A DNA stretch of 10,661 bases from Candidatus Thorarchaeota archaeon (GTDB lineage Archaea > Asgardarchaeota > Thorarchaeia > Thorarchaeales > Thorarchaeaceae), in contig PRDI01000010.1 of NCBI GenBank assembly GCA_003345595.1, positions 1 through 10,661 on the forward strand. The letters run 5' to 3'. Under the pieces are notes generated by a model that saw only the letters and a list, made by a program, of their open reading frames with translations, was not told the origin of the DNA and ran no database searches. The position numbers and the translations under genes were made by a program. Below, piece by piece: positions 1-5,258 of the stretch. The stretch's first letter is position 1. The number at the start of each line of letters is the position of its first letter.

Positions 1-2403
1 AGGAAGGGTGAGTACAGGAAGGAGTTCCGTGAGCTCCTGGAAAAAGGGTTCATCAGAGCGCGCGTTGACGGGGAACTGAAAGACCTCGAAGAAGGTATGT
101 CGTTAGATCGCTACTACAAACACACTATCGAGGTGGTGCTTGACCGGATCAAGGTTTCAGACTCACAGCACGCAAGAATCTCCGAGGCAGTTGAAACATC
201 ACTCAAGATGGCCGAAGGGGTCGTCACGGTTGCCAGCGACCAAGGCGACTTCACGTTGTCAGAGAAGTTCGCGTGCGTCGACTGCGGCATAAGCTTCCCC
301 GAGATGGAACCTCGGCTCTTCTCGTGGAACACGCCTCATGGGGCGTGCCCGAACTGTACAGGACTTGGGCTCATCAGAGAGATAGATCCCAAGCTCGTCA
401 TACCGGATGACTCGCTGTCAATATCCCAAGGTGCCATAGCCCCATACCATTGGATGACGAAGTCGACCACAATCAAGGCCGTCGCCGACAAGTATGGCTT
501 CTCAATGGACACGCCTTGGAGAGACCTCAGGCCCGAAGACAGAGACAGGGTTCTATGGGGTACAGGGACAGAGGAGGTCGAGATCAACTGGCACTGGGGT
601 GACGACCCGGCTAAGACCCAGTGGGAGGGAACGACTGTAGGTCCCTTCCGTGGTGTGATAGCCCAAATGGAGCGTAACTACAAGACCACAAAGTCGTCTT
701 ACATCCACTCATGGCTTGAGCGATTCATGGTTGATCACCCGTGCACTGTCTGCAACGGCCTGCGACTCCGTCCTGAGGCAACTGCTGTCAAGTTCCGGGA
801 CAAGTCAATCACCGAGCTCAACGGCATGTCGATCAGAAACCTGGGAGCCTTCCTCCAGTCCGTGGTTCTGCAGCCAAGAGAGGAACCAATAGCGCGCCCG
901 ATTATCAAAGAGATCATGGGGAGAGTGGGGTTCCTCATGGAGGTTGGTCTGGACTACCTGACTGTGGACCGGTCCGCCCCATCACTTGCTGGTGGTGAGG
1001 CTCAGAGGATACGGCTCGCAAGCCAGATTGGTTCGAACCTAGTTGGAGTCACATACGTGTGTGATGAGCCTTCCATCGGGCTCCACCAACGTGACAACCT
1101 CAGGCTTCTCAACTCATTGAAGCGTCTGCGTGACGTCGGCAACACAGTCGTTGTGGTCGAGCACGACGAATCCACCATGAGAGCAGCGGACTATCTTGTG
1201 GACTTGGGTCCTGGTGCTGGTGCTGAAGGCGGCCGCGTCGTGGTCGCAGGCACTGTCGATGAAGTGCTCAAGTCGAAGAAGTCTTTGACTGCTAGATACC
1301 TCAGGGGTGAAGAGAGAATACCCGTTCCTCAATCTCGAAGGAAGCCAAATGGCCGTTTCATCGAGATCAGAGGAGCACGCCACCACAACCTCAAGAACAT
1401 CAATGTGCGAATACCTCTTGGCCTCTTTGTTTGTGTCACTGGGGTCTCTGGAAGCGGCAAGTCAAGTCTGATTGATGAGACCCTGCAGAGAGATTTGGCT
1501 CGCAGGTTCTACAATGCGACCTCTACCCCCGGAGAGTGCGATGGAATCATTGGTGCAGACCAGCTCGACAAGGTCATCATCATTGACCAGAGCCCAATAG
1601 GAAGGACACCGAGATCGAACCCTGCGACATACGTGAGTCTGTTCTCCGACATCAGAGACCTCTTTGCCAGCCTCCCAGAAGCAAAGGTAAGAGGCTATGG
1701 CCCTGGCAGGTTCAGCTTCAACGTCAAGGGAGGACGATGTGAGAAGTGCAGGGGTGCCGGGGTAGATATCATTGAGATGCAGTTCCTCCCGCCAGTCGAG
1801 GTCACATGTACCGAGTGCAAGGGGCGCCGGTACAACAGGGAGACACTCCAGGTCCGCTACAAGGGCAAGAACATAGCAGACGTCCTTGCGATGAGGATCG
1901 ACGAGGCCATTGAGTTCTTCGCTGACATCCCGTCCATCCATAGGAAACTGATGACCCTGTACAACGTCGGCATGGGATATGTCCAGTTGGGTCAGCCAGC
2001 AACAACACTGAGCGGCGGCGAGGCACAGAGAATCAAGCTGAGCAAGTTCCTCTCAAGACCTGCCACTGGACAGACTCTGATTCTACTTGACGAGCCAACT
2101 ACAGGTCTCCACTTCCAAGACATCAAGAAGCTGTTGGAGCTGCTTCACAAGCTCGTCGACCTTGGAAACACTGTGCTTGTCGTGGAGCACCAGCTTGACG
2201 TGGTGAAGACCGCAGACTGGGTGATAGATCTTGGGCCCGAGGGTGGTGACGAGGGCGGTTATCTTGTAGCGGAAGGGACACCAGAGGAAGTGGCCGCAAA
2301 CAAGGCATCGTTCACCGGACGGTATCTGCGTGGAATCCTGCGTGACGAGAAGTCCTCGGCGCCTGTCCAGGAACACCCCGTGAGGAGGGCGAAGAGAACA
2401 TGA
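1..2403 (+). CDS. uvrA: Excinuclease ABC subunit A, copy 1 (5'-truncated by the window edge)
   Basis: The frame is open from base 1 (RKGEYRKEFRELLEKGFIRARVDGE..., UvrB-binding domain), so the ATG at 97 is internal. It has Zn-binding CxxC pairs, an insertion domain, signature I LAGGEAQRIRLA, Walker B I VCDEPSIGLH, Walker A II GVSGSGKSS, DQSPIGRTPRSNPATY, signature II LSGGEAQRIKL and Walker B II LLDEPTTGLH. Stop is TGA at 2401-2403. Confidence 0.97.
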   Translation, partial: RKGEYRKEFRELLEKGFIRARVDGELKDLEEGMSLDRYYKHTIEVVLDRIKVSDSQHARISEAVETSLKMAEGVVTVASDQGDFTLSEKFACVDCGISFPEMEPRLFSWNTPHGACPNCTGLGLIREIDPKLVIPDDSLSISQGAIAPYHWMTKSTTIKAVADKYGFSMDTPWRDLRPEDRDRVLWGTGTEEVEINWHWGDDPAKTQWEGTTVGPFRGVIAQMERNYKTTKSSYIHSWLERFMVDHPCTVCNGLRLRPEATAVKFRDKSITELNGMSIRNLGAFLQSVVLQPREEPIARPIIKEIMGRVGFLMEVGLDYLTVDRSAPSLAGGEAQRIRLASQIGSNLVGVTYVCDEPSIGLHQRDNLRLLNSLKRLRDVGNTVVVVEHDESTMRAADYLVDLGPGAGAEGGRVVVAGTVDEVLKSKKSLTARYLRGEERIPVPQSRRKPNGRFIEIRGARHHNLKNINVRIPLGLFVCVTGVSGSGKSSLIDETLQRDLARRFYNATSTPGECDGIIGADQLDKVIIIDQSPIGRTPRSNPATYVSLFSDIRDLFASLPEAKVRGYGPGRFSFNVKGGRCEKCRGAGVDIIEMQFLPPVEVTCTECKGRRYNRETLQVRYKGKNIADVLAMRIDEAIEFFADIPSIHRKLMTLYNVGMGYVQLGQPATTLSGGEAQRIKLSKFLSRPATGQTLILLDEPTTGLHFQDIKKLLELLHKLVDLGNTVLVVEHQLDVVKTADWVIDLGPEGGDEGGYLVAEGTPEEVAANKASFTGRYLRGILRDEKSSAPVQEHPVRRAKRT
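2382..2388 (+). promoter_or_regulatory. Shine-Dalgarno-like site for uvrA copy 2, inside the uvrA copy 1 tail
   Basis: GAGGAGG lies 11 nt before ATG 2400, and that ATG overlaps the upstream TGA (ATGA). Confidence 0.55.

Positions 2404-5258: not shown

Follow-up and report, generated by a model that had tools for sequence, protein, structure and literature searches.

UvrA is the textbook homodimeric damage sensor of nucleotide excision repair (NER), and in its canonical class I form, described for E. coli and in the structures from G. stearothermophilus (2R6F/3UWX), C. thermocellum (9GXK series) and T. maritima (3PIH), it is the product of one gene. Class II proteins (D. radiodurans UvrA2, DrrC and Ecm16) are encoded by a second UvrA-family gene in genomes that already have one; neither the UvrB-binding domain nor the first Zn finger is present in these proteins, which function outside UvrBC (PMC9328131). 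In the fused double UvrAs (PRK00635, Chlamydia type), of about 1,900 amino acids and present in Heimdallarchaeaceae, Chloroflexota, Planctomycetota and Chlamydiales, two non-identical full-length units are joined in one chain. To our knowledge these fused forms have not been the subject of a functional study, and literature searches found none. The stretch analyzed here (the window) is the entire 10,661-bp contig C10 of a 2.73-Mb Thorarchaeota metagenome-assembled genome (MAG; 129 contigs, 83% complete, 2.9% contamination). It contains two consecutive class I uvrA genes, uvrA1 and uvrA2, whose products we call A1 and A2, and it covers the distal portion of the uvrB-uvrA1-uvrA2-uvrC NER operon of Thorarchaeia. 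Judged from sequence comparison, the two products are class I UvrA paralogues that are both old and non-redundant, and the best-supported reading, to which we assign a probability of roughly 55%, is that an A1-A2 heterodimer would be the main functional species. Literature searches did not find a paper on a UvrA heterodimer or on tandem class I uvrA genes, Asgard archaea and Thorarchaeota included, and public records annotate A1, A2 and the fused forms simply as 'excinuclease ABC subunit UvrA'.

The plus strand of the window carries four open reading frames (ORFs) and the minus strand one partial ORF. uvrA1 extends over positions 1..2403 of the plus strand (800 codons and a TGA stop), with its 5′ end open at the contig edge. 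uvrA2 (2400..5258, plus strand; ORF call and Pfam) is complete and encodes a protein of 952 amino acids. The uvrC gene (5327..7147, plus strand; ORF call and Pfam) starts 68 nt 3′ of uvrA2, and its 606-amino acid product is complete, with GIY-YIG, UVR, RNase H-like and HhH domains (Pfam) and a score of 546 bits against a TIGR00194 cut-off of 285. Since contig C10 starts within uvrA1, the A1 of the window lacks about 155-175 N-terminal residues, Walker A-I among them; the full-length A1 orthologue from the same genus (locus L088) has 974 amino acids and begins 3 nt after uvrB. Neither uvrB nor a further UvrA N-terminal match was found in this MAG, which fits an assembly gap, as the contig ends inside uvrA1, and is not evidence of absence.

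At the junction the TGA of uvrA1 (2401-2403) overlaps the ATG of uvrA2 (2400-2402) in the sequence ATGA (2400..2403, plus strand), and the Shine-Dalgarno-like sequence GAGGAGGG (2382..2389, plus strand) lies within the 3′ end of uvrA1, 10 nt 5′ of the uvrA2 start. The two genes occupy different reading frames and are therefore not one gene read through. An earlier sequence-only reading had described the overlap, the Shine-Dalgarno-like site and the position of the two uvrA genes upstream of uvrC, all of which are borne out by the ORFs and the junction sequence. This junction is not peculiar to the window. Across 19 loci read in detail, namely the window and 18 further loci that represent 17 genera and both families of the class, 16 have the 4-nt ATGA or GTGA overlap, two have a 1-nt overlap and one has a 1-nt spacer, and in related loci a GGAGG-like motif is found 7-12 nt 5′ of the uvrA2 start. 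In locus L101 (G032:C15) the position of the uvrA2 start is occupied by ATA, in the sequence ATAG that overlaps the uvrA1 stop codon TAG; the first in-frame GTG after it is 6 codons further, so that this locus may have either a non-canonical start or a shortened uvrA2 N-terminus.

The gene pair is conserved throughout the class. UvrA matches occur in 72 of 81 genomes of the same class, with none of the 24 high-quality genomes and none of the 17 genera lacking one, and in at least 50 genomes the immediate same-strand neighbor of an A2-type match (65-85% identity) is an A1-type match (50-54% to A2). In all 18 further loci A1 is followed by A2, with uvrC next wherever the contig continues, and uvrB was located upstream of A1 in five loci and in three genomes where it was sought. 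A location together with uvrB and uvrC is a feature that the pair shares with canonical class I genes. Orthologues are 63-85% (A1), 65-85% (A2) and 57-73% (UvrC) identical to the proteins of the window, while cross comparisons between A1 and A2 give 46-54%. The uvrA-uvrA-uvrC order is hence class-wide in the 17 genera sampled and not restricted to this genome. An uninterrupted locus with one copy only was not seen among the class loci examined: the genomes without the pair are fragmented, with UvrA pieces at contig ends or no match, and one of them (G049, 93% complete, 300 contigs) has only fused UvrA paralogues and paralogues of the A3 type described below. In the closed Thorarchaeial genome G058 and in G009 (98% complete, 10 contigs), A1 and A2 are the only UvrA homologues and there is one uvrB each.

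Other UvrA homologues accompany the pair in part of the class. A3, a third stand-alone full-length UvrA of 943-971 amino acids present in some Thorarchaeial genomes, is 40-44% identical to A1 and A2; its loci (L106-L110 and L115; for example G056:C1:1829529-1832399) do not adjoin uvrB or uvrC, it clusters with a single UvrA from a Heimdallarchaeaceae genome (support 100), and it carries substitutions at the DNA wedge and the interface (Y62T, F66M, Q65S/T). The MAG of the window also contains, on contig C103 (L007:5386-10512, minus strand), a UvrA-UvrA fusion ORF of about 1,708 amino acids, 35-40% identical to A1 and A2. The second unit of this fusion has no UvrB-binding region and matches query residues 245-943 only. 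Its orthologues, of 1,619-1,652 amino acids, occur in several other Thorarchaeial genomes and form a family distinct from the Heimdall fusions of two full-length units. In the sister family (G016, L103 and L105) uvrA2 is split over two contig ends. The N-terminal half is 45% identical to A2 of the window and carries GVSGSGKS, not GPSGSGKS, together with the A2-type R65 and P82; the C-terminal piece on the other contig is a candidate part of the same gene.

Both copies have the complete architecture of a class I UvrA. They are 50% identical over 787 aligned residues (BLASTP), and are therefore not an assembly duplicate, in agreement with the divergence that had been counted by hand. The UvrB-binding domain (UvrA_inter, PF17760; E=2.9e-22 in A1 and 3.2e-26 in A2) and the insertion domain (UvrA_DNA-bind, PF17755; E=5.2e-27 and 5.9e-25) are detected by Pfam in each, as the earlier reading had claimed. 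With these domains and a location within a uvrBAC operon, A1 and A2 differ from class II proteins. Against the UvrA equivalog (NCBIfam NF001503 / TIGR00630; cut-off 1147) A2 scores 1362 bits, and the full-length same-genus A1 orthologue (85% identical), used because A1 of the window is truncated, scores 1422 bits. A2 can be aligned over its whole length with the UvrA structures 2R6F, 9GXK and 3PIH, and has the Walker A, signature, Walker B and H-loop motifs of both nucleotide-binding domains; A1 has all of them except Walker A-I, which is off the contig and is found in all 18 A1 orthologues. The Zn modules are CVKCG/CAHCG, CPSCNG/CETCSG and CEKCEGSG/CDVCHG in A2, and (off contig)/CVDCG, CPNCTG/CTVCNG and CEKCRGAG/CTECKG in A1.

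Constraint was gauged by within-clade identity per domain, because the proteins of the nearest relative share no more than 85% identity, a distance at which saturation of synonymous sites is to be expected. Within the clades, identity averages 73% for A1 and 70% for A2, with comparable values domain by domain, and the Walker A Lys, the Walker B Asp-Glu, the signature motifs, the H-loop His and the three Zn modules are all retained across both clades; relaxed selection on one copy, which would have spoken against a working pair, was not seen by this measure. The UvrB-binding domain is 69% (A1) and 65% (A2) identical within the clades and 38% between the copies; therefore, each copy keeps its own version. 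The insertion (DNA-binding) domains of A1 and A2 are 24% identical.

The history of the two copies was analyzed with a 137-row FastTree tree, a 67-row IQ-TREE tree (LG+C20+F+G4) and approximately unbiased (AU) tests on LG+F+G4 constrained searches. A1 and A2 each form a separate clade with support of 99-100 in FastTree and IQ-TREE, so that the two stable clades expected by the earlier reading are recovered. Monophyly of A1 plus A2 is rejected (AU p=0.0006), and hence the pair is not the product of a recent duplication. A1 lies outside the canonical single-UvrA lineage. It joins the N-terminal halves of fused doubles from Heimdallarchaeaceae, Chloroflexota and others (support 95 in FastTree and 95 in IQ-TREE under LG+C20), a grouping also present in the free LG+F+G4 tree; placing A1 apart from all fused halves is marginally rejected (p=0.047, a borderline value obtained under a model more prone to long-branch artefacts). 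The C-terminal halves of the fused doubles form their own clade (98, IQ-TREE).

Within the phylum most other families carry one uvrA. In the family labelled Heimdallarchaeaceae, a single ORF of 1,917-1,957 amino acids contains two full-length UvrA units, and in two closed Heimdall genomes this fused double is the only UvrA homologue, with one uvrB. In these closed genomes the uvrB gene is about 1.5-1.7 Mb distant from the fused gene (fused loci L116-L121; for example G104:C1:418665-424421). The motifs of the C-terminal unit of the fused proteins are clearly degenerate (signature I LSNGE, signature II ISGGEAER, H-loop II IDHN), and the D-loops of the N-terminal unit are GLA and GLS. An exhaustive search with an A1 profile gave more than 100 double-length UvrA representatives (50% clusters); because that search ranks by summed score, fused doubles dominate it, and the result shows their diversity and not the nearest single-length relatives of A1. 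Where the sources were looked up they were Chloroflexota, Chlamydiales, Planctomycetota and Heimdallarchaeota. Two public metagenome proteins (P0005 and P0008; 2,334 and 2,343 amino acids) are double full-length UvrAs that extend for about 330 residues past the second unit at the C-terminus.

Among 5.8 billion proteins searched, the A1 family itself accounts for more than 100 clusters (90% identity), labelled, where a source is named, as Thorarchaeota, Sifarchaeia, Hermodarchaeota or Promethearchaeota, and the nearest outsiders to the family are fused doubles, not single UvrAs. Taking the tree grouping and these outsiders together, units of the A1 lineage are otherwise found only in covalent linkage with another UvrA unit that differs from them. 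This link may be regarded as partial 'Rosetta stone' evidence for A1 working with a non-identical partner. A2 may represent the partner type usual for this lineage, or may be a canonical UvrA that was recruited as partner. The Thorarchaeial pair resembles the fused doubles in that (i) two non-identical full-length units are made together; (ii) the order of the units is the same, with the A1 type first, and (iii) the Walker A-I sequence of A2, GPSGSGKS, is common to many C-terminal units. It differs from them in consisting of two polypeptides instead of one chain of about 1,600-1,950 amino acids, with a stop codon at 2401-2403 and two reading frames, and A1 and A2 score 702-714 against PRK00635 (NF001885), whose cut-off is 3054.

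Contacts between UvrA protomers have been described for the C. thermocellum protein: R54-L507, S58-I85, Y55-Y55, Y55-S82/P83/A84/I85, A63-L67, F66-F66, G80-M508, L81-L507 and P83-L507/V510, with Y62, Q65 and F66 as the DNA-inserting residues (PMC12796330). The domain that forms the interface, ATP-binding I, is discontinuous in the chain (residues 1-89 and about 507-590). These cryo-electron microscopy interface positions were transferred onto an alignment of A1, A2 and bacterial UvrAs. Y55 and S82 are present in 37 of 37 bacterial UvrAs, whereas the Thorarchaeial copies have clade-specific changes at Y55, S82, A84, V508 and L511. A1 orthologues carry Y55F and A84S (16/17 each) as well as L511T and L514C (17/18 each), and A2 orthologues carry Q65R, S82P and V508T (17/17 each). 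In the window the N-terminal segment of ATP-binding domain I of A2 (2493..2654, plus strand) includes Walker A-I, the wedge helix and the GLPPAIS loop; the Q65 to R change lies in the interface and DNA-wedge helix RRYVESLSSYARRF (2553-2594, plus strand) and the S82 to P change in the GLPPAIS loop (2634-2654, plus strand). In a predicted mixed dimer Phe55 of A1 would be opposite Pro82-Pro83-Ala84 of A2, and Tyr55 of A2 opposite Ser82-Pro83-Ser84 of A1. Such a facing of apolar with apolar and of polar with polar residues is, as a residue-level prediction, suggestive only.

The nucleotide-binding motifs also have clade-specific forms. Signature I of A1 is LAGGEAQR (985-1008, plus strand), with LAGGE in 16 of 19 A1 orthologues. 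Its Walker B-I/D-loop I stretch, GVTYVCDEPSIGLH (1045-1086, plus strand), is likewise a variant of the A1 clade (VTYVCDE in 18/19 orthologues) and adjoins dimer-interface positions 507-510 in the C. thermocellum numbering; H-loop II of A1 is EHQ. In A2, Walker A-I is GPSGSGKSS (2493-2519, plus strand), with GPSGSGKS in 18 of 18 orthologues, and the Walker B-II/D-loop II stretch LDEPTTGLSASD (4968..5003, plus strand) has GLS instead of the usual GLH, GLS or GLA being present in all 18 orthologues. GPSGSGKS is absent from the 53 canonical single UvrAs compared and present in C-terminal halves of fused doubles (4/6 from Heimdall and 7/14 others), and it is more telling than LAGGE or GLS.

On these grounds a working scheme can be proposed for an A1-A2 sensor. 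Ribosomes finishing uvrA1 would go on to translate uvrA2, giving near-equimolar products. A1 and A2 would assemble through their ATP-binding-I domains into a pseudo-symmetric heterodimer, which would replace the canonical UvrA homodimer as damage sensor, recruit the single UvrB and pass the lesion to UvrB and then to UvrC. The protomers would differ slightly in their ATPase sites, DNA-wedge residues and UvrB-binding domains, and an asymmetry that can only be transient in a homodimer would thereby be genetically encoded. Eukaryotic MSH2-MSH6, in place of the bacterial MutS homodimer, and the heterodimeric ATP-binding cassette (ABC) exporters with one degenerate site are cases in which paralogues have replaced an asymmetric homodimeric ATPase, and the Thorarchaeial pair may by analogy hard-wire such an asymmetry, though these families are unrelated to UvrA. 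A stronger version of the proposal, held tentatively and at somewhat less than even odds, is that the A1-A2 heterodimer is obligate and is the only NER damage sensor of Thorarchaeia, that is, the two-gene form of a widespread 'double UvrA' architecture in which a division of labor between the protomers extends to the four ATPase sites, the DNA wedge and the two UvrB-binding domains.

Several observations weigh against a heterodimer. First, the comparison with the fused doubles, which the sequence-only reading had drawn, is half supported, namely by A1: A2 is placed within the canonical single UvrAs (98), as sister to a single-copy Asgard UvrA (97; IQ-TREE), and its union with the C-terminal halves is recovered in no best tree. 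Joining A2 to all C-type halves is not rejected (p=0.08-0.10, a borderline result), while joining it to the Heimdall C-halves alone is rejected (p=0.0004). Second, most interface residues are unchanged in A1 and A2 and Y55F is a conservative change, so that A1-A1 and A2-A2 homodimers are probably both still possible. Third, the A2 of the sister family already has R65 and P82, and the A1 of that family (one sampled genome, L103) does not have the A1 changes, which must therefore have arisen after the pair existed. Fourth, overlapping stop and start codons are common in operon genes whose products do not bind each other. Finally, LAGGE is found in 3 of 16 single-copy Asgard UvrAs, and GLS in single UvrAs from bacteria (3 of 37) and Asgard archaea (2 of 16), and each composite ATP site of UvrA is built from a single chain (PMC12796330). 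An obligate partner can therefore not be diagnosed from the signature and D-loop changes, and the degenerate-site logic of heterodimeric ABC transporters is not transferable, since a degenerate intrachain site need not demand a partner. For the same two reasons 'reciprocal degenerate sites' were rejected as evidence for a heterodimer.

Among the alternatives, the one that survives best, although we consider it unlikely, supposes two separate homodimeric sensors, A1-A1 and A2-A2, each binding UvrB and dealing with different lesion classes or DNA contexts, and placed in one operon for co-regulation. The largely canonical interface residues of both proteins and the fact that each copy alone passes the UvrA equivalog threshold are what this explanation would predict, and the divergence of the insertion domains and the Arg at wedge position 65 of A2 would fit a division of lesions; moreover, second UvrAs with roles of their own are known in class II UvrA2, DrrC and Ecm16 (PMC9328131). 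Those specialised proteins, however, have lost the UvrB-binding domain and are encoded outside uvrBAC operons, and separate sensors leave unexplained both the near-invariant stop/start overlap over 17 genera and the affinity of A1 to units that are found only in covalent pairing with a different unit.

Less probable still is an unbiased mixing, in which homo- and heterodimers would form statistically and the pair would be kept by subfunctionalisation or dosage, the heterodimer having no special role. Paralogues derived from a homomer commonly retain cross-interaction, and the mostly conserved dimer interface and the mildness of the motif differences are compatible with this outcome. Mixing without preference accounts poorly, however, for two clades that are distinct across the whole class, each with fixed interface substitutions, for the failure to see an uninterrupted single-copy locus, and for the AU result, according to which the pair did not arise by a lineage-specific duplication. 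An artefact (duplication during assembly or binning, a fused gene broken by a frameshift, or decay of one copy), for which only the incompleteness and contamination of the MAG and the truncation of copy 1 at the contig edge could be adduced, is effectively refuted by the 50% identity of the copies, by the recurrence of the arrangement in many species, on long contigs as well as in closed genomes, by the different frames with a conserved overlap, and by the conservation of both copies, neither of which has internal stops. A heterodimer of A1 and A2 thus continues to be the reading that we prefer.

Downstream of uvrC the window contains two further ORFs. The first (7406..10171, plus strand; ORF call) encodes a predicted surface protein of 921 amino acids, with an N-terminal signal or anchor, weak ThuA/DUF4350-like matches, two PKD/Ig-like repeats and, at the C-terminus, a hydrophobic anchor followed by a basic tail (KRAKS). 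The second, a partial ORF of 116 amino acids that is cut by the contig end (10311..10661, minus strand), belongs to the isoprenylcysteine carboxyl methyltransferase / phospholipid methyltransferase family (PF04140, E=2.7e-7). Scanning the window against Rfam and for tRNAs gave no matches.

How the four ATPase sites and the two UvrB-binding domains share the work in the symmetric UvrA dimer is still debated (PMC6486640, PMC12796330). If the A1-A2 reading is true, a natural heterodimer, or a fused pseudo-heterodimer, would let each protomer be mutated separately and would make the question of asymmetry directly testable. Moreover, the single-gene UvrA is not universal, since a whole archaeal class and many bacteria with fused forms encode two non-identical UvrA units.

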